Shown: piece by piece, positions 2,802-10,887 of the stretch | How positions within the stretch are numbered: position 1 is the stretch's first letter | How the letters are laid out: every line of letters begins with the position of its first letter | Origin: Cyclobacteriaceae bacterium | Lineage (GTDB): Bacteria > Bacteroidota > Bacteroidia > Cytophagales > Cyclobacteriaceae | Reading direction: 5' to 3' | DNA: 64,000 nucleotides | Assembly: GCA_019638395.1 (NCBI GenBank) | Contig: JAHBTX010000004.1 | Coordinates: forward strand, 306,411-370,410 | Notes under the pieces: generated by a model | Told to the model about the DNA's origin: nothing | Seen by the model: the letters and a program-made list of their open reading frames with translations, nothing else | The model's database searches: none | Translations under genes and position numbers: made by a program

Positions 2802-3785
2802 CTAAGCTAAAGGTGTAGCGTAACTCATTTTAGGAGTCTTCAACGCTTCGCGTACCCACTTGCCTCTCGCTTCTGCAATTCTGCGTACTTCCAACCGTTC
2901 TTTGTTGCATGGGCCATCGCCATTAATCACGCGTTTAAATTCTTCCCAGTCTGGTTCGGTGTATTGCCACTTGCCGTTTTCATTTTTCTTCAGACTCGGA
3001 TCGGGAATGGTAAAGCCCAGTTCCCAGATTTTAGGAACATACATATCTAAAAACTGGTTGCGCATTTCATCGTTGGTGCCCATCTTCACTTTCCAACGCA
3101 TCAATACTTCTGTATGTGCCGAAATCTTATCAGACGGCCCAAAGAAGTGCATCATAGGCGGCCACCAGCGGTTCAATGCTTCCTGAAACATTTGGCGTTG
3201 TTTCGCGGTACCGCTGGCTAAGTAAATAACACAATGATGGCCATACTTCAAGTGAAAAGATTCTTCGGCACAGATTCTTTCCAGTGCGCGGCAGTAGGGG
3301 CCGTAACTTCCTTTTGCATTCGCCAACTGATTCACAATGGCACCCGCATCTACCAGCCAGGAGATAAAACAGCAATCGGCCCACGTAAAGGTGGGATAGT
3401 TAAAAATGTTGGAGTACTTTGATTTGCCGTTGATCAGGTCATCAACCATTTGCTCGCGCGATTTGCCAAGTGTTTCGGCAGCACTATAGAGTAACTGCGC
3501 ATGACCAACTTCATCTTGCACTTTGGCCATTAACGACATTTTGCGTTTAAACCCCGGAGCGCGTGTAATCCAGGTGCCTTCGGGTAATGCACCAATTATT
3601 TCACTGTGCGCATGTTGTTCGATCATGCGGATGAGTTGCTTGCGGTAAAGCTGCGGCATCCAATCGGTAGGTTCAATTTTTTCGCCTCTTGCAATGCGGG
3701 CTTCGAATGCAGCCAACCGTATTGGATCTTCCTGCGCCAGACTATCAGTCTTTAGTCCTTCAAATGTATTTCCCCCTCCGTACAT
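2802..3785 (-). CDS. paaA: 1,2-phenylacetyl-CoA epoxidase catalytic subunit PaaA
   Basis: [35 protein letters not shown] di-iron ligands; likely start is the ATG at 3785 (MYGGG). Confidence 0.95.
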
Positions 3786-3816
3786 AAAGCAGTTATTATT
3801 GCCTAACAATCGTTTG

Positions 3817-3824
3817 CAAATATA
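3817..3824 (-). promoter_or_regulatory. Bacteroidota -7 promoter element (TATATTTG) upstream of paaA
   Basis: Exact match to the TAnnTTTG consensus about 30 nt upstream of the paaA start. Confidence 0.6.
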
Positions 3825-3880
3825 AACAGGAATCCCGGCAGAAGGTTACTGAAAGTGAATAAAATGCAGGGTGAGCCTCC

Positions 3881-4465
3881 TTACTTTTTCAAGCCATTCA
3901 CCAGCATATCAGCCAGTTGCTGGCCTAAGTCCTGTGGCACAATTTTGCTGGAAGGGTCGTACCACATAGGCATCCAGTTGAGGGATGAAAACAACGTCAT
4001 TACCGCCAGTTTTTTATCGATGGAATCTTTGAACTCACCTTGTTTAGCACCGGCTTCAATAATGGACTTAAAGCGGTTTATGTAGTTGATGCGCAGTAAC
4101 AAAAAATCGCGCAAGTAAGGTTGGCTCAGGTGGCGATGTTCATTCATAAATACAGCCGAAGCCGTAAGGTCTTTAGCCATAACCTGTATGTGCCCGATGA
4201 TTCCGAGTTTCAGCTTTTCGGATGCCGTTACTTCTTTCTTTTCAACTTCGGCTAACGACTTACGAAACTCAGCAGCCATATCAAAACACAGGTGCTGTAG
4301 AATTTCTTCCTTCGATTTAATGTGCGAGTATAAACTGGCTGCTTCAATGCCCAGCTTCTGGGCAAGGTCGCGCATAGAAGATGCCGCATAACCTTTCTCC
4401 CGAAACAATTCGGCAGCGCTGCGGATTACTTGTTCTTTACGGGATAAATTGCCTAGTACTTCCAT
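3881..4465 (-). CDS. TetR/AcrR family regulator (PaaR-like)
   Basis: N-terminal HTH AAELFREKGYAASSMRDLAQKLGIEAASLYSH; directly upstream of paaA. Confidence 0.9.
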   Translation of the reverse strand: MEVLGNLSRKEQVIRSAAELFREKGYAASSMRDLAQKLGIEAASLYSHIKSKEEILQHLCFDMAAEFRKSLAEVEKKEVTASEKLKLGIIGHIQVMAKDLTASAVFMNEHRHLSQPYLRDFLLLRINYINRFKSIIEAGAKQGEFKDSIDKKLAVMTLFSSLNWMPMWYDPSSKIVPQDLGQQLADMLVNGLKK

Positions 4466-4529: not shown

Positions 4530-5027
4530 ATGAAATTCAACTCGGTTAAAGAGTATTTCTTAAGGCTAAACAATACCGGCTACCAACTGATGATGGTGCC
4601 CATGATCTTGTTTATCTATCATTATGCCAGCGTTTATGCATTTACAACTCGGGTATGGATAACCGATTTAGCGATTGTTCACTATTTATTAATTGGTGTG
4701 ATTACACTTTCGTTGATATCCCTAACGGTCGTTCATTTTTTTGTACGCTCGCGCGCGATAAAAATTTCCGTACAAACGGGACTTGGATTAAAACTTGAGC
4801 AGTTGGGAAGTGTGTTGATGCAACGGTTAATTGTACTTGCACTGATAACCCTGGCAATGCCAGTGGGATTGGTACTTACACATCACATCGGGTTTGCAAT
4901 TGGATTTGCTATGCTGTTAGTGTGGTTTTTTTTGCATTGGCCCACGCCCACTCAGGTTTGTAGTTTACTTAAACTGAAAGGTGATGAAAAGGAAATGGTA
5001 TTAAGTAAGGGGGAGGCGTTTAAATAA
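4530..5027 (+). CDS. Hypothetical multi-pass membrane protein
   Basis: About four hydrophobic segments; C-terminal WPT...LKL...E motif resembles that of 58186-58659. Confidence 0.75.
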   Translation: MKFNSVKEYFLRLNNTGYQLMMVPMILFIYHYASVYAFTTRVWITDLAIVHYLLIGVITLSLISLTVVHFFVRSRAIKISVQTGLGLKLEQLGSVLMQRLIVLALITLAMPVGLVLTHHIGFAIGFAMLLVWFFLHWPTPTQVCSLLKLKGDEKEMVLSKGEAFK

Positions 5028-5030
5028 ACC

Positions 5031-5285
5031 TTATTCTTCAGTTTTTTGTAAACTTCTTAATCGTTGATTCATTAAACCAAGCAGTGTAGTTGCACTACCA
5101 AACAGGATGATTGTTCGAACATAATGATCCCCTTTTACCAAAGATATGATAACTCCAATGACCACGCCTATTAATAAGTGGCCCAATAAGTCAGCAATTT
5201 TATTTTGTGAGAATTGAATTGCCCCGAAGTCATAATAGAATTTAAGAAGCTTTCTCATACTACAATATTTTAAGAAATTATTCAT
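5031..5285 (-). CDS. Small membrane protein, candidate immunity factor, downstream of the XRE gene
   Basis: AT-rich ORF with two hydrophobic segments including GVVIG; start may be the later ATG (MRKLL). Confidence 0.5.
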   Translation of the reverse strand: MNNFLKYCSMRKLLKFYYDFGAIQFSQNKIADLLGHLLIGVVIGVIISLVKGDHYVRTIILFGSATTLLGLMNQRLRSLQKTEE

Positions 5286-5352
5286 AGTAAATGTGGTTCT
5301 TTTTGGCCAGAACTCAAAAAATATTGATTACAAAATCGTGAGAAACTCCTTC

Positions 5353-5592
5353 TTATTTCTTTCTTAACTTCTGAGTTTGAAAATTGACAAGCTCTGGAAG
5401 TGTAATTTTTAACCCCATTGAAATAGATATAAGAACATCTATGGTTGCGCAGTATTTAGCGTTTTCAATACGCTGAATTGTGATTTTAGCTAAATCTGAT
5501 AAGTCAGCTAGTTCTTGCTGACTTAGTTTTTGAGCATCCCTCAACTGCCTTAGATGAGTTCCAAAAGCTTTAATGCCGGAGGGATTCTTCAC
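5353..5592 (-). CDS. XRE-family helix-turn-helix regulator
   Basis: LRQLRDAQKLSQQELADLSDLAKITIQRIENA is a typical Cro/C1 HTH. Confidence 0.9.
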   Translation of the reverse strand: MKNPSGIKAFGTHLRQLRDAQKLSQQELADLSDLAKITIQRIENAKYCATIDVLISISMGLKITLPELVNFQTQKLRKK

Positions 5593-5618
5593 AGAGCGAA
5601 AGTCGCTCAGTGAAAAAA

Positions 5619-5650
5619 TATTTTTGGATACACATGTGTATCCAAAAATA
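5619..5650. promoter_or_regulatory. Perfect 32-bp palindrome, putative XRE operator
   Basis: TATTTTTGGATACACA|TGTGTATCCAAAAATA, between the divergent XRE gene and precursor gene 1. Confidence 0.7.
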
Positions 5651-5657
5651 AAAATTA

Positions 5658-5665
5658 TATATTTG
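5658..5665 (+). promoter_or_regulatory. Bacteroidota -7 promoter element (TATATTTG) for the precursor operon
   Basis: Exact TAnnTTTG match immediately 3' of the palindrome. Confidence 0.6.
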
Positions 5666-5775
5666 AAAAGAAGGATATGTGCATACCAAGACTTCTAAAT
5701 ACTTTGATTGAGGATTCTTAGCAGATTGAAATAATAAATTCCAATTATAAATTTCTTAAACCTAAATCCAATTCT

Positions 5776-6126
5776 ATGAAAAGAAACAAACAGAGTATTA
5801 AAATACTAGCGTTAATGCTAGTTTTCACGTTTATGGTGGTAACATCCTTCAGAGTGAATGCTTCTTCAGCATTTGGCTCAACAAGCTCAAATGTCTATAA
5901 AACAACATCGAATGACAGCCAACAGATGAATGCGGTAGCTCCTAATGTCGTTGCAGCTGCATTAGTCGCGGGATTTGAAGTTGGAGTTGCTGTTGGTGCA
6001 GTTGTTGGTATAGTTTCGGGATTTGCATATCAAATGGTTACTAATTTTCTTCACGGTGTTGAGAGTATAGCATCTTTAGACTATTTGAATTATGATCCAA
6101 ATGATCTCTCAAAGTTTGATAATTAA
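5776..6126 (+). CDS. Secreted glycine-zipper peptide precursor 1 (putative SdpC/YitM-like toxin)
   Basis: Signal peptide ending RVNA; core GFEVGVAVGAVVGIVSG; tail LNYDPNDLSKFD; next to SdpA/SdpB-like genes. Confidence 0.7.
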   Translation: MKRNKQSIKILALMLVFTFMVVTSFRVNASSAFGSTSSNVYKTTSNDSQQMNAVAPNVVAAALVAGFEVGVAVGAVVGIVSGFAYQMVTNFLHGVESIASLDYLNYDPNDLSKFDN

Positions 6127-6150
6127 TAATTGACTAAACCCAAAAACAAA

Positions 6151-6480
6151 ATGAAAAATAGAAAAGTGTACTCTCTTTTGATTTTAGTTGCTATGTTAGG
6201 ATCAATAGCTATGCAGGCATCAGGAGCGTCAAGTGTTGGTTCTGTAGCGGTAAATAAGTACGATGTAAGTGCTGTTGGTACTATGAGTAAAGATGTTAAT
6301 CTCGCAGCAGCGGCAGCATTTGCTGTTGGATTTGTAACTGGACTGGCTGTTGGTGTAATTGAAGGATTTAATGTTGGAACTTACCTTGCTAATTTCTTAT
6401 ACGGTGGAGAACAATTAGCATCTTCTTTAGAGAATCTAGATTATTCTAAGAATGATCTCGCAAGATTTGATCCCAAGTAA
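6151..6480 (+). CDS. Secreted glycine-zipper peptide precursor 2, paralog of precursor 1
   Basis: Signal peptide; core GFVTGLAVGVIEGFNVG; tail LDYSKNDLARFD; ATG at 6151 preferred over TTG at 6130. Confidence 0.7.
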   Translation: MKNRKVYSLLILVAMLGSIAMQASGASSVGSVAVNKYDVSAVGTMSKDVNLAAAAAFAVGFVTGLAVGVIEGFNVGTYLANFLYGGEQLASSLENLDYSKNDLARFDPK

Positions 6481-7192
6481 TTTGACTGATCAAAAGCGAA
6501 GAGGTTCGAAATACGGTATTACCGTTTTTCGGGCTTCTTTGTATTTAGTAATTTTTCTTCATTTTTCAATTTTGACTTTGTATTTGGCTCCCTCTAATCC
6601 TGTAAACCACATTTTTAAAGTTGAGATAGGTTCTTATGTAAATCCTTTTTTTAGTCAAAATTGGAGCCTCTTTGCACCAGATCCTGTTTCAAGTAATCAG
6701 ACTTTACAAATTAAATTTATTGCTTTTAATAATGAGATCGAGAGTAAAACAGATTGGTTAGATTTAAAAGAGATGGTCCATGCAGAACGAGCCAAAAGCT
6801 TCTGGTCTCCGCTTCAAAGGTTAGAGAAATATCTTAGTGGTGTTACGCAATCTATTGTTACTGATCAAATCCACTTAAACAATTTCATAGAAACTCACTC
6901 AAACTTTAGCCAAGATTCTATAAGGGTGCTACAGGATTTATATAAAATGAATTATGGCCACAGAAGTCTTAAGTCTTATTCTCAAATCGTATTGTCAAAA
7001 TTAAACTTCGCCAAAGAATACGATAGCATAGCTGTAATGTATCGTATAGTTGATGCTAAGTTCCCACGTTTCTCCAAGCGCCATTTAGATTACCACGATT
7101 TGAATAACTATGAGATAACTTATTTTGAGTTAGACTTAGGGGTTATCAAATATAAAGATTTAGAAGATGACGGCCGAAGTTCAGAAAACTAA
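6452..7192 (+). CDS. DUF5819 / SdpA-like maturation protein
   Basis: N-terminal TM segment followed by YVNPFFSQNWSLFAPDP; precedes an HTTM gene; start may be the TTG at 6482. Confidence 0.75.
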   Translation: MISQDLIPSNLTDQKRRGSKYGITVFRASLYLVIFLHFSILTLYLAPSNPVNHIFKVEIGSYVNPFFSQNWSLFAPDPVSSNQTLQIKFIAFNNEIESKTDWLDLKEMVHAERAKSFWSPLQRLEKYLSGVTQSIVTDQIHLNNFIETHSNFSQDSIRVLQDLYKMNYGHRSLKSYSQIVLSKLNFAKEYDSIAVMYRIVDAKFPRFSKRHLDYHDLNNYEITYFELDLGVIKYKDLEDDGRSSEN

Positions 7193-8102
7193 CCAATTCA
7201 TCGGGCTATCAATTATCAGGTTCATTTTTGGCTTGATTATTTTAAAGAATATTATTTTTTATCTACCAACATCGGATTACTATTTCGGTAAAAACGGAAT
7301 TGTTCCTTGGGAGGATTTTCTGCTAATCTGCGGAACAATAAACATGTCGTTCATGACAATATTTTTTCAAAATGATTTAATGCTTAAAATTTACTTATTG
7401 TTGACAGTTGTGTTAGCATTTAATTTCTGTTTAGGAATAGGCTCAACCATAAATGGTGTAGCATTAACTATTTTTTTGTTTTTCTTAAAGTTAAGAAACG
7501 GATTAATACTTGATGGTTCTGACAATGTTATTTCAGTAGTATTGCCATTTTTAATATTTACCAATTGTTATCGTTTTTTCAATGTTCAATTGGCTTATGA
7601 TAAGTTGGAGCAAGTTTTGAGAAGTAAAGATTGGATGACAGTTGTGGACAGAGTATTTGTTTTAGCGATTAAAATTCAAGTGATCTTTGTCTATTTTTTT
7701 ACGGCTATTGCAAAATCTGGAGGAGTATTATGGCAAAATGGTACAGCTGTTTACTATACTATGCGCGTGAAGGAGTTTAATGCTACGTCATTGAATGTTC
7801 CCCTGACTCAGAATGTTTATTTTGTTGTATTTACAACTTATACTACTCAACTTATTGAAATAGCATTTGCCTTTTTAGTCTGGTTTAAAAAGACAAAATT
7901 CATAATTCTCACCATTACGGCATTATTACATGTTGGTATTTTTATCTTCATGAGAATTGATAACTTCTCTTGGGTGATGATAACCACGTATGCCGTGTTT
8001 ATAAATGATGATGAGTTTTTATCGATACATAAAGGCGTAAAACTAAGAATATCTTCTTTCTTACTCTGGAAGCAAAAAATATTAAACATAATCATCAAAT
8101 GA
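7167..8102 (+). CDS. HTTM-domain / SdpB-like membrane protein
   Basis: Multi-TM; DGSDN, YFFTAIAK..G.LWQNGTAVYYTM, LIEIAF and LHVGIFIFM.IDNFSWVM motifs. Confidence 0.8.
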   Translation: MTAEVQKTNQFIGLSIIRFIFGLIILKNIIFYLPTSDYYFGKNGIVPWEDFLLICGTINMSFMTIFFQNDLMLKIYLLLTVVLAFNFCLGIGSTINGVALTIFLFFLKLRNGLILDGSDNVISVVLPFLIFTNCYRFFNVQLAYDKLEQVLRSKDWMTVVDRVFVLAIKIQVIFVYFFTAIAKSGGVLWQNGTAVYYTMRVKEFNATSLNVPLTQNVYFVVFTTYTTQLIEIAFAFLVWFKKTKFIILTITALLHVGIFIFMRIDNFSWVMITTYAVFINDDEFLSIHKGVKLRISSFLLWKQKILNIIIK

Positions 8103-8617
8103 TTTCAATAAAGCGTCTATATGGACTAATAGTTATAGTTGCATTCTTCAATGTTGTTATTACTCGTTTTCTATGCTATTTAATAATCACAGATTATAAC
8201 GATTATTCAGCTATGGGAGAGTTCGCATTATTGAGTATCATCTTTTTTCCGGTTTGCTTAATGCTTAATACAGTAGGTTTACTTTACCTTATTCGTAATG
8301 AAGAAGTCGTGATAGATCGTAAGTTTAGGCCTGGTTTATTCTGGTTAATGGTGATCTGTTTTCTTATTTCATCTTGTGCTACATTCGGAATTGACTTTGT
8401 TTATGATCTAACTATTGAAAATAATGTATCAACATTCTTTGCTAATATGCTTTTAAACTCATTAAAAAATACTAATAGTGATGTTTCTGCTTTATTGCTG
8501 AGTACTCCATTTCTCCTTCAAAATTATATTTTTAATCTTTTCGCACTCTTATTAGCCTGGTTCATAACAGGAATGTATGTTAAGCGCATGCTGAGAAAGA
8601 GATTGACATCTGAGTAA
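8099..8617 (+). CDS. Multi-pass membrane protein, candidate immunity protein
   Basis: About four TM segments; ATGA overlap with the HTTM gene; last gene of the AT-rich island. Confidence 0.65.
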   Translation: MISIKRLYGLIVIVAFFNVVITRFLCYLIITDYNDYSAMGEFALLSIIFFPVCLMLNTVGLLYLIRNEEVVIDRKFRPGLFWLMVICFLISSCATFGIDFVYDLTIENNVSTFFANMLLNSLKNTNSDVSALLLSTPFLLQNYIFNLFALLLAWFITGMYVKRMLRKRLTSE

Positions 8618-8640
8618 GGTTTCTTGTAGAAAATACTAAT

Positions 8641-9645
8641 CTAGAAAGTTATTCCAAAACTAAACGCATTCAACTGCGGGCCTTTGTTTGCTACGAAGAG
8701 TTCGTTCAAATCGTAGTTGAAGAACAAATCAACATCATCAAAGCCAATTTGTGCGCGCAAACCGTAACGTAGGTTGTTCAGGTAAAAATTGTCGTGGTTG
8801 CGGGGTTTACGTTCAGCATCATTTTCTTTAAACACCTGTTTGCTGTAGCTGGCGATGCGGTAGCCCACATAAGGGCCAACACCTATGCGAAATGAATCGG
8901 CATTGTATCCATCAAAAAAACTAGGCTTATGTCGATTGCCTCCAAAGTCCAGCATAGGTACCAGCGATGCATTCAGGTACGTAGCCGTTAATTTACTTTT
9001 GATGAAATCTGCATCACGTGTGTCGGGCTGAAAGATTACACTATTATCATCTTTGCTCACCTGGGTTTGTGCATTTTGAAATTTGAAGTTATACCAGCTT
9101 GCGCCCAATGCCCACTCCATGTAAAACTTATTGGCGATGCGGGTACGTTGCACACTGTTAATACCCACGTACCACGATCCCCACGGTTTTACAGTGAACA
9201 AGCTATTATCCTGATCGGGGAAACCATTTTGGGTAATGTAGTTGTTGGTACCCAGATCGAAGTTCATAGAGTGATAGGTGCGTTTGCGAAACCTTTTGCT
9301 CTCTTTGTTATTGCTACTCCAATCTACACCCCAGTCTTCCTCTTTTTCGGCATCAACAGTTTCTTTGGCATCGGCAAGCCGAGCTGAATCTGTTTTTAAA
9401 TAGTCGATGGCTGCTTTTTGATGGCTGGTCGTATCTTCTTTTTCCAACTTGGCTATTAAATCTGCAATCAATTTCTGAAAATCATATTGTTTCATAGTCT
9501 CCAGATCTTTCTTGTCTTGCACGGCCAGAATCAGTTTACTGCCATTTCCTACTTTAATTACAACAGTATCGGCTGGTTTGGTTTGACTAAATCCAACCAC
9601 ACTTATCAAGGCAACCAAACAGGTCGTTATCATCTTACGCTTCAT
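8641..9645 (-). CDS. Outer-membrane beta-barrel domain protein
   Basis: Signal peptide, alternating beta-strand pattern, C-terminal FSFGITF. Confidence 0.75.
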   Translation of the reverse strand: MKRKMITTCLVALISVVGFSQTKPADTVVIKVGNGSKLILAVQDKKDLETMKQYDFQKLIADLIAKLEKEDTTSHQKAAIDYLKTDSARLADAKETVDAEKEEDWGVDWSSNNKESKRFRKRTYHSMNFDLGTNNYITQNGFPDQDNSLFTVKPWGSWYVGINSVQRTRIANKFYMEWALGASWYNFKFQNAQTQVSKDDNSVIFQPDTRDADFIKSKLTATYLNASLVPMLDFGGNRHKPSFFDGYNADSFRIGVGPYVGYRIASYSKQVFKENDAERKPRNHDNFYLNNLRYGLRAQIGFDDVDLFFNYDLNELFVANKGPQLNAFSFGITF

Positions 9646-9647
9646 AC

Positions 9648-10316
9648 TCAGTTTCTTTTTGTTTTGTCTTTTCTAAAATCGAGGGCGAACAATTCGTTCT
9701 TGGCATCGCGCAAGCTGCCCAATTCGCTTTCTCCGTTTTTAATATCGCGCGCTTTCTCGAGAATTTTTTGCAGGCCACTTTTATCATCGGCTGTGCTTGC
9801 CATGGCAATTACAGGTTCAGTCATGTTAATCGGCATCACGTCTAATGTAAACTCAATTACAATTGGTTTGCGGGCCGGAATGGGTTCAGTTTTATTTTCG
9901 GTGATCAATACTTCCGGTTGAACAACAATCGCTGGTTCTGGATTCACTTTTTCAGGTTCTTCTTTTTTTGTTTCTGATTGGATGATCGTTGATTTTTTCT
10001 TTTGCTTGGGTTGTTCTGTTTTCGTTTCAGCTACCAGATTCTGTTTCTGTTCTTCCGGTTGCACCACTACCGGAATTTCTTTTTGTGGTGAGGGCAAAGG
10101 TTGTTGTACTAATTCAGGTTGTACTTGGGTATGCTTGCTCCACCTATACCAGGCGCCACTCACCAATCCGAACAATACCAATGCAGCAGCCAGGCGCCAA
10201 ACCCACGCGTTATTTTTTTTTGTTAAACCAGCTTCTACTTTTTGCCACGCATCAGCCGAAGGTGGCACCGGGTGATTGGCTAGTTTGTTTTTGAAAAGCT
10301 CATCTATTCGGTTCAT
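9648..10316 (-). CDS. Putative anti-sigma factor (single TM, low-complexity linker)
   Basis: IDELFKNKL...PSADAWQKV followed by a TM segment; overlaps the ECF sigma stop; start reset to the ATG at 10316. Confidence 0.6.
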   Translation of the reverse strand: MNRIDELFKNKLANHPVPPSADAWQKVEAGLTKKNNAWVWRLAAALVLFGLVSGAWYRWSKHTQVQPELVQQPLPSPQKEIPVVVQPEEQKQNLVAETKTEQPKQKKKSTIIQSETKKEEPEKVNPEPAIVVQPEVLITENKTEPIPARKPIVIEFTLDVMPINMTEPVIAMASTADDKSGLQKILEKARDIKNGESELGSLRDAKNELFALDFRKDKTKRN

Positions 10317-10887
10317 ATCCTTTTTGTTTGTAGAGCAAGTCTTGCTCTGCTTCTTGTAAACTTTTTTGTAAGGCCACACGCGCCCGGCTCAATTGCGACT
10401 TCGATGTGTTTTCGCTGATGTTCAGTTGCTCGGCAATTTCTTTGTGCGAGTAGCCATCAATGGCATATAAGTTAAACACAATTCGATACCCGGCCGGCAA
10501 TGCTTCAATCATCTTCATCAGGTCTTCGGCCTCTAAGTGTGCCTCCAGGTTTTGATAGTCGGGTTCGTAATCGGCAGCTTCAATGTCGGTTTCGAGGTAC
10601 ATGTTTTTGTGCTTGCGCAGGTAGCTGAGCGATTCGTTCACTACAATCTTGCGCATCCAACCTTCAAAATTTCCTTCACCGGTGTATTGATCGATCTTGT
10701 TCAGGATTTTGGTAAAGGCTGTGATCCACACATCTTCTGCCTCCATTTTGTCTTTGATGTACCGGCAGCACAAGGCATAAAGTTTAGACGCATAGCGATC
10801 GTACAAACGTTTTTGCGCCTGGCGGTCGTTGCGCCTGCAACCTTCAATCAGTTCCATGTCTTTGGCCCGGTAAACCTCAAATTCCAT
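10300..10887 (-). CDS. ECF (sigma-70 group 4) RNA polymerase sigma factor
   Basis: AEDVWITAFTKI, FEGWMRKIVVN, YRIVFNLYAIDGYSHKEIAEQLNISENTSKSQL. Confidence 0.93.
   Translation of the reverse strand: MEFEVYRAKDMELIEGCRRNDRQAQKRLYDRYASKLYALCCRYIKDKMEAEDVWITAFTKILNKIDQYTGEGNFEGWMRKIVVNESLSYLRKHKNMYLETDIEAADYEPDYQNLEAHLEAEDLMKMIEALPAGYRIVFNLYAIDGYSHKEIAEQLNISENTSKSQLSRARVALQKSLQEAEQDLLYKQKGYEPNR

Follow-up and report, generated by a model that had tools for sequence, protein, structure and literature searches.

What does a small AT-rich island in the genome of a Cyclobacteriaceae bacterium make, and which of its genes act together in making it? The island lies in a stretch of 64,000 nucleotides (contig JAHBTX010000004.1 of assembly GCA_019638395.1, positions 306,411 to 370,410 of the forward strand), which is called the window in this study, and positions are counted from its first letter. 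A sequence-only reading of the window had proposed that the island carries an antimicrobial-peptide system analogous to sdpABC and yitPOM of Bacillus subtilis, composed of two secreted hydrophobic precursors, a DUF5819 gene, an HTTM gene, a gene for a protein with four transmembrane helices (4-TM), a divergent gene of the XRE family and a small membrane gene. All of these genes were found in place, and the results obtained from family models, from gene neighbourhoods and from the profile of guanine-plus-cytosine (GC) content were all in favour of that reading. The new element is a family of precursors, which we call the FD-tail family, and its strict linkage to the DUF5819-HTTM pair. The locus is very probably a cassette of an enzyme and its substrates. 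On balance, and with some reserve, we also think that it is a mobile operon under XRE control which yields one or two secreted peptides in modified or processed form, with presumed antimicrobial and immunity roles.

The FD-tail precursors and their partners

The five genes of the operon are as follows.

5776 to 6126, plus strand: preA, a pro-peptide of 116 amino acids (aa), read from its open reading frame (ORF), with a Sec signal, a polar linker, a (GxxxG)4 hydrophobic core and the tail LNYDPNDLSKFDN.
6151 to 6480, plus strand: preB, a paralogous pro-peptide of 109 aa with the same architecture as preA and the tail LDYSKNDLARFDPK.
6452 to 7192, plus strand: a DUF5819 protein with the motif FSQNWSLFAP (PF19136, 68.9 bits against a cut-off of 27.1, E=1.1e-18).
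7167 to 8102, plus strand: an HTTM polytopic membrane protein (PF05090, 31.5 bits against a cut-off of 27.7).
8099 to 8617, plus strand: a 4-TM protein of 172 aa, translationally coupled to HTTM through ATGA, with a conserved PFLxQN motif.

These genes stand on the plus strand in the order preA, preB, DUF5819, HTTM and 4-TM, and the XRE gene and a gene for an 84-aa protein with two transmembrane helices (2-TM) are divergent from them. The overlap is 29 nucleotides (nt) between preB and DUF5819, 26 nt between DUF5819 and HTTM, and 4 nt between HTTM and 4-TM, which indicates a tightly packed operon.

The Sec signal of preA is predicted to be cleaved near VNA/SS. In preB, of which the database start is M8 of a longer ORF (P0001), five Gly residues can be read at i+4 spacing. 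The two pro-peptides share 31% identity (E=3e-11), that is, they are paralogues. Neither of them matched a family of Pfam or NCBIfam, and a word-based homologue search with preB returned the query alone. As the sequence-only reading had held, the precursors do not resemble SdpC: they are about half its size, gave no match to TIGR04032 at E<=1, possess an invariant C-terminal FD tail and lack a Cys pair.

We built a profile of the FD-tail precursors from nine sequences and searched 1.84 billion cluster representatives with it exhaustively. The profile gave 105 matches, nearly all of which were 95-124 aa in length and aligned from end to end, and preA (P0012) and preB were the best and the sixth best of them, respectively. 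One match, P0086, was a spurious repeat protein and was set aside, leaving 104 genuine members. The dipeptide [FY]D was found within the last 10 residues of every member (104/104). The consensus of the tail was Y at position -9 (79%), D at -5 (78%), F at -4 (90%), S at -3 (75%), F at -1 (94%) and D at 0 (100%), and exactly one residue followed the last D in 71 of the 104 sequences. A signal-like N-terminus was present in 100 members and a hydrophobic core in 94. That is, the members start with a Sec signal, continue with a hydrophobic core of Gly and Ala and carry at the C-terminus the near-invariant tail Y-x-x-x-DFSxFD. The cores are hypervariable between these constant ends, one to five precursors stand in tandem at a locus, and two flavours of core occur in a conserved order, in which alpha (AAGYxxG[RT]..HH) comes before beta (VGVxDGWNS).

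Both preA and preB possess the Sec signal, the hydrophobic or variable core, the C-terminal Y-x3-[DN]-F-S-x-F-D and the position directly 5' of DUF5819-HTTM, and their tails are net-acidic. The possibility that they are chance ORFs is ruled out by the conservation of the family. We conclude that the two pro-peptides are members of a new, previously unnamed family of proteins of about 110 aa.

Loci for comparison were gathered with the DUF5819 alignment, and others were reached through the precursor profile alone. One or more precursors lie directly 5' of the DUF5819-HTTM pair in the window, in the genomes G028 (two loci), G394, G818 and G1122, at the locus L007 and in Runella (L008). Precursors were also found directly upstream of the pair in Terribacillus (L010), in Paenibacillus alvei (L011, two loci) and in a metagenome-assembled genome (MAG) of Eremiobacterota (L014), and a Cyclobacteriaceae MAG possesses small ORFs with a Sec signal, a Gly/Ala core and an FD tail at the same place. 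Those of these loci that were retrieved with DUF5819 have, apart from G818, one or two such ORFs upstream. The metagenomic loci reached through the profile alone (L046-48, L050, L052 and L053) show the same cassette wherever the contig suffices.

The linkage was also clear when whole genomes were compared. Among 401 Cytophagales genomes, DUF5819 occurs in four, and the precursor profile matched three genomes, all of which are among these four (p=3.75e-7). The fourth, G818, has five precursors in tandem that bear this tail, and the precursors are hence confined to DUF5819-positive genomes. The same gene set was found again in other genomes, which means that its recurrence is far beyond chance. 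These results show that DUF5819 and HTTM are co-inherited with the FD-tail family, and that the neighbourhood is conserved across genomes and phyla, as the sequence-only reading would have it. The FD-tail precursors are the first candidate substrates for the DUF5819-HTTM pair.

The precursors of G818 lie at 4719-6563 of contig C16 on the minus strand (L054). They are 96-99 aa in length, all five end in Y-x-x-x-DFSxFD, and they are followed by DUF5819, HTTM, 4-TM and an ABC ATPase, with a LytTR response regulator upstream. In Paenibacillus alvei TS-15 (L011), two DUF5819-HTTM pairs are located within 6 kb (750-2883 on the minus strand and 5556-7645 on the plus strand), each with its own upstream secreted precursor ending in IFDK or IVFDH.

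Relatives of the DUF5819-HTTM pair

The family assignments of DUF5819 and HTTM in the sequence-only reading are borne out by scores above the Pfam cut-offs. The alignment with PF19136 spans positions 1-154 of the 169 in the profile, and 10 of 10 relatives of the DUF5819 protein also match; the alignment with PF05090 covers positions 8-258 of 259. The DUF5819 protein has a K/R-rich N-terminus followed by a single transmembrane (TM) helix, an arrangement from which we predict that the N-terminus is inside and that a domain lies in the periplasm.

That the pair is SdpA/SdpB-like was upheld as remote homology and not as membership of the NCBIfam families. The score of HTTM with the SdpB model TIGR04033 was 43.6 bits against a cut-off of 178.4, meaning that HTTM is not a member, and 9 of 9 HTTM relatives were likewise sub-threshold (best E=1e-19). 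DUF5819 gave no match at E<=10 to the SdpA models TIGR04034 and PF17418 (cut-off 53.1 bits), and one of its 10 relatives matched these models at E=0.023 and 0.24. We compared, by hhalign, profiles from the loci retrieved with DUF5819 with profiles from genuine SdpA/SdpB loci of Bacilli. HTTM was aligned with SdpB over 215 columns (99.6%, E=6e-24), and DUF5819 was aligned with SdpA over 59 N-terminal columns only (91.6%, E=8e-7), a part that consists of the TM helix and the Q-x-W-x-[LF]-[FY] motif. Judging from these profile alignments, the members of the pair are remote homologues of SdpA and SdpB that stand outside the NCBIfam SdpA and SdpB families.

A single-sequence phmmer search of the PDB with HTTM found nothing, and a profile was needed. 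When the profile of nine HTTM relatives was used, the human vitamin-K-dependent carboxylase GGCX was detected at E=3.6e-10, and K183 of HTTM was aligned to K218 of GGCX. The catalytic and quinone-pocket residues of GGCX have been defined by structural work (PMC12647623), and their equivalents in HTTM are as follows.

GGCX K218: HTTM K183, kept.
GGCX W223: HTTM W189, kept.
GGCX D263: HTTM E231, kept.
GGCX H287: HTTM H255, kept.
GGCX F299: HTTM F267, kept.
GGCX N159/H160 (Glu-binding): HTTM G117/S118, within an invariant DG[SG]DN, not kept.

The W, H and F equivalents are invariant in 17 of 17 bacterial sequences. The K218 equivalent is K in all of the Bacteroidota members and Q or R in four others. 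By this alignment, HTTM keeps the quinol-activating residues of the carboxylase and lacks its Glu-binding pair. The host genome encodes MenA (TIGR00751, 275 bits), so that a naphthoquinol cofactor is available.

DUF5819 and HTTM(-DCC1) have been modelled with AlphaFold 3 as a split GGCX, in which DUF5819 stands in place of the lumenal clamp (bioRxiv 10.64898/2026.08.19.745780). The window has the same two Pfam families in neighbouring genes, and K183, W189 and F267 here are the counterparts of the Lys, Trp and Phe residues that stand by the quinone pocket of that model. The preprint names no substrate, whereas we identified a conserved precursor family beside the pair. Like GGCX, the protein has an HTTM core with equivalents of K218, W223, H287 and F299; unlike GGCX, it has DG[SG]DN in place of N159/H160, and in the modelled arrangement a separate DUF5819 protein would replace the lumenal domain. 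The substrate of GGCX is presented extracytoplasmically and is recognised via a docking peptide that is separate from the part to be modified, and in this respect it resembles the scheme proposed below for the FD tail. In addition, MloH carboxylates an aspartyl residue (bioRxiv 10.64898/2026.08.19.745780), and the FD tail is rich in Asp.

A DCC-family CxxC protein is fused to HTTM or adjoins it in many loci. By analogy with VKOR, this linkage suggests a thiol-dependent redox partner. The island in the window has no DCC gene, and one is present elsewhere in the genome. The fused form, in which HTTM carries a C-terminal DCC1-like CxxC domain, was seen in Runella (L008, 6651-7856), in L046 (6397-7602) and in L052 (3560-4684), and DCC is a separate neighbouring gene in G028, G394, L010 and L053.

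Two further observations concern the enzymes of other loci. Both HTTM copies of Paenibacillus alvei (L011) have Q at the position of GGCX K218 and K at the position of D263. In three loci of the Bacteroidota family f49 (L017, L018 and L019), a more distant DUF5819-like protein with HQNWKLFAPD or HQGWQLFAPD accompanies an HTTM protein of 286-300 aa, and their flanks of about 1.5 kb contain no recognisable precursor.

Possible functions of the cassette

SdpAB and YitPO are required for production of the SDP and YIT toxins (PMC6818787). The island shares with sdpABC-sdpRI and yitPOM-yitQ a pro-protein that is exported by Sec and contains a hydrophobic segment, an A protein with one TM helix followed by Q-x-W, together with an HTTM B protein (needed for maturation in Bacillus), a separate membrane gene, for which we assume an immunity role here, and a repressor-type gene. 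It also shares the location on an island and the hypervariability of the cores, which are toxin cores there and precursor cores here. On the other hand, two precursors (alpha and beta) lie upstream, giving the order C-C-A-B-4TM against A-B-C, the regulator is of the XRE/HTH_3 type and not an ArsR-type SdpR, an SdpI-family protein is missing, and the host is a diderm. The locus is best taken as an SdpABC-like peptide-maturation cassette, possibly with menaquinone dependence.

A likeness to class IIb two-peptide bacteriocins was also seen, because two differentiated small GxxxG genes adjoin each other and are followed by a small membrane protein, and because the alpha-then-beta order is kept across loci. 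Class IIb bacteriocins, however, have a double-glycine leader and a C39 ABC exporter, neither of which occurs in the island, where the precursors have a Sec signal (K/R, a hydrophobic stretch and an AxA-like site). The pro-forms of the island are also much longer, and they have a conserved C-terminal follower and a dedicated HTTM enzyme.

We propose that the cassette may work as follows. PreA and PreB would be exported by Sec, and their signal peptides would be removed. With an N-in DUF5819 and a GGCX-type active site that is extracytoplasmic by homology, Sec-exported precursors would meet the enzyme in the periplasm. The invariant tail Y-x-x-x-D-F-S-x-F-D and a conserved motif at the mature N-terminus may then dock the precursors on the periplasmic face of the DUF5819-HTTM complex. 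This complex would modify the precursors and/or free their (GxxxG)4 cores, either by base chemistry driven by menaquinol and O2 or by SdpAB-like processing. The alpha and beta cores might work jointly as a membrane-active two-peptide agent, against which the producer would be shielded by the co-translated 4-TM protein and/or by the 2-TM protein linked to XRE, and XRE on a 32-bp palindrome would hold the operon off until induction. The constant ends, the hypervariable cores and the one to five precursors per locus fit the leader/follower logic of peptides that are made on ribosomes and modified after translation (RiPPs). A membrane-active two-peptide product is favoured by the (GxxxG)4 cores, the alpha/beta pairing, the mobility of the island and the toxin-producing homologues.

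A more specific proposal, which we regard as tentative and rather doubtful, is that a bacterial split enzyme resembling the vitamin-K-dependent carboxylase has its first ribosomal substrates in the FD-tail proteins. In that event, a strong base made with menaquinol and O2 might carboxylate or alpha/beta-functionalise the Asp of D-F-S-x-F-D, or core residues while the precursor is docked through it. The DCC-family CxxC proteins might recycle the quinone epoxide, as VKOR does. If the proposal were true, the precursors would represent a new RiPP-like class that is Sec-dependent and periplasmic.

Several findings speak against a secreted, modified antimicrobial product. The island encodes neither a protease nor an exporter nor an outer-membrane route, a difficulty if a diderm is to release a diffusible toxin, and to our knowledge mature SDP carries no carboxylation. 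The hydrophobic core is missing or weak in the five precursors of G818 and in the third ORF of L053, and therefore pore formation cannot be the general function. No adjoining precursor was visible at the DUF5819-HTTM pairs L012, L013 and L017-19. The enzyme side has its own difficulties: the Glu-binding pair is not kept, two Bacillota homologues have Q in place of K218 and K at the D263 position, and the resemblance of DUF5819 to the GGCX clamp in the split model was not reproduced here, since Foldseek of the DUF5819 monomer (AlphaFold 2, predicted local distance difference test score 77) against the PDB gave a best E of 0.16 and did not recover GGCX. As for immunity, no similarity of the 4-TM protein to SdpI, YitQ or known immunity proteins was detectable in Pfam, NCBIfam and structure searches. 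Conservation with the system does not extend to the XRE gene and the gene for the 84-aa protein, which are absent from the other genome loci compared. Finally, metagenome runs labelled as RNA-Seq, in which the island was met, look like DNA (island and flank are covered at the same low depth, and contigs of up to 50 kb are assembled). Their label is probably wrong, and on account of this DNA-like behaviour they were not counted as support for expression.

Some of these findings would suit a product that is not a weapon. That is, the same cassette might make periplasmic or inner-membrane proteins which are modified, for example carboxylated, on the acidic FD tail for an accessory role of the housekeeping type, for instance in cation binding, envelope stabilisation or signalling, with 4-TM as a subunit of the enzyme. 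The Sec signal as the sole export feature of an island without outer-membrane export or protease genes, the family members with non-hydrophobic cores, the translational coupling of 4-TM to HTTM and its conservation with it, and the retention of the quinol-activating residues all agree with this explanation. We nevertheless consider it unlikely, because a sporadic, island-borne distribution is typical of competition and RiPP loci, the cores are hypervariable between constant ends with one to five tandem precursors per locus, a bacteriocin-type regulator is linked in G818 (LytTR), ABC transporters occur at L014, L015 and G818, and the nearest characterised homologues make toxins. If, instead, the small proteins were membrane subunits or regulators and not substrates, DUF5819-HTTM would have another target, for instance a quinone, a lipid or some unlinked protein, and the existence of pairs without an adjoining precursor (L012, L013 and L017-19) would be expected. 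This explanation seems quite improbable to us. A copy number of one to five, divergent cores and invariant ends make the pattern of a substrate and not that of stoichiometric subunits, and cleavable Sec signals with an acidic tail would put the tail on the side of the GGCX-type active site, if the topology is as homology indicates.

Two other explanations were considered and rejected. LinG, a linaridin protein, is an HTTM protein (PMC9927463). Linaridin loci resemble the island in that LinG/LinH-LinL-LinE include an HTTM protein and a protein with no assigned function, both needed there to mature a ribosomal peptide, and LinG acts with LinL on ribosomal peptides. It might thus be supposed that the island is a minimal linaridin-type RiPP cluster, in which HTTM (as LinG) and DUF5819 (as LinL) install dehydro-amino acids. 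We think this very unlikely: a LinE alpha/beta-hydrolase, a methyltransferase and a decarboxylase are all missing from the island, its precursors have Sec signals and not a cytoplasmic PxxxTP leader, their cores are poor in Thr, linaridins are almost exclusively actinobacterial, and the phylum here is another one. A module for phage defence or abortive infection, or a lysis cassette of phage origin, would accord with a small mobile island, an XRE protein like those controlling restriction-modification and membrane-active small proteins. These possibilities are extremely unlikely, however, since PADLOC and PHROGs match the generic helix-turn-helix (HTH) only, phage genes are absent from the island and its relatives, and the conserved partners are membrane enzymes of a biosynthetic type.

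We therefore return to the XRE-controlled peptide operon as our preferred explanation. The biochemistry of peptide maturation by HTTM proteins of the SdpA/SdpB type and of the LinG type has remained unexplained since they were first described. The locus and its relatives offer a compact test case, namely a family of candidate substrates whose invariant motif would serve for docking or modification, with one to five natural variants per locus. The five-gene operon is small enough to be reconstituted heterologously, and the action of HTTM on a peptide thereby becomes testable by mass spectrometry. An antimicrobial product would add a candidate class of antimicrobial peptides in environmental Bacteroidota.

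Regulator, membrane proteins and insertion site

The remaining features of the island are as follows.

5027 to 8641, no strand: the AT-rich, horizontally acquired island, 3615 bp, GC 0.328, with an 86-bp empty site in G035.
5031 to 5285, minus strand: a 2-TM orphan of 84 aa (75 aa from the database start), an ORF downstream of XRE with hydrophobic segments.
5353 to 5592, minus strand: an XRE-family HTH regulator of 79 aa (PF01381 HTH_3, E=2e-12).
5619 to 5650, no strand: a perfect 32-bp palindrome, TATTTTTGGATACACA followed by TGTGTATCCAAAAATA, found by repeat search (16+16 nt, 100% complementary).
5658 to 5665, plus strand: TATATTTG, a putative -7 promoter element of the precursor operon, read from the sequence.

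The XRE protein resembles the control proteins of restriction-modification systems (PADLOC, E=7e-12). The palindrome is located between XRE and preA, 26 nt from the start of XRE, and ends 7 nt before TATATTTG; it is a candidate operator for XRE. The -7 promoter consensus of Bacteroidota is TAnnTTTG, and we take the octamer at 5658-5665, which fits it, to be the putative -7 box of the operon. The sequence-only reading had counted XRE and the small membrane gene as parts of the cassette. Both are present here, but they are specific to this island, and a divergent XRE was seen again in one metagenomic locus, the short contig L049. The regulators of other loci are different, being LytTR in G818 and a kinase with a LuxR-type regulator in G028.

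Homologues of the 4-TM protein lie 3' of HTTM in G028, Runella (L008), a Saprospiraceae MAG, G394, G818 and L046, and PFLxQN is common to them; L006 and L009 are among the loci that have one downstream of HTTM. Foldseek of the 4-TM model against the PDB gave no significant neighbour. The protein is a candidate immunity protein or accessory subunit. The 84-aa protein had no family match, no relative among 5.8 billion proteins and no counterpart in the other loci compared, and neither it nor the 4-TM protein matches an SdpI family. We regard the 84-aa protein as a candidate SdpI-like immunity or signalling partner.

The AT-richer block noticed in the sequence-only reading is sharply bounded. GC is 0.29-0.36 over about 5000-8750 and 0.42-0.47 on either side, and the overall value is 0.328 for the island against 0.427 for the window. 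In the congener G035, the flanks, which are 81-83% identical to those in the window, are joined with 86 bp between the equivalents of 5026 and 8642. That is, the island is a true insertion, and this, together with its AT-richness, indicates that it was horizontally acquired. A repeat search found neither direct repeats nor tRNA-type boundaries at its borders. The 86-bp spacer of G035 is rich in hairpins and full of GAATCTTGAATTTTGAA-type inverted repeats. At the same site, G021 has 362 bp with repeats similar to those of the G035 spacer, and G011 has a beta-lactamase-like gene of 369 aa with the same kind of repeats at its flanks. The site at 5026/8642 is a variable hotspot (compare L036, L037 and L038).

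DUF5819 is rare: it occurs in 2 of the 37 genomes of the genus and in 5 of 401 Bacteroidota genomes. In G028, the other congener with DUF5819, the cassette is located at a different site, inside a gene for a beta-lactamase-like serine hydrolase. At this locus (L004, G028:C101), a direct repeat of 149 nt (5228-5376 and 9235-9383, 94% identical) brackets the cassette and duplicates part of the serine-hydrolase gene, and the cassette has, in addition, a gene for a DCC protein and one for a further membrane protein. L046 and L047/L048, from metagenomes of related samples, carry an identical cassette with the same precursor protein in two left-flank contexts, one on the LpxB side and the other on the DprA side.

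Fragments 100% identical to the island and its flank (window 5673-9700) were found in five runs of mud metagenomes (X1-X5) labelled METAGENOMIC RNA-Seq. Those mud samples therefore harbour the same strain or one very close to it. The genes on both sides of the island are conserved in congeners. On the left (window 2802-4465) they encode a PaaA-like subunit of phenylacetate-CoA oxygenase, a TetR regulator and a membrane protein of 165 aa, and on the right (window 9648-10887) a secreted protein of 334 aa, a putative anti-sigma protein and an extracytoplasmic function (ECF) sigma factor.

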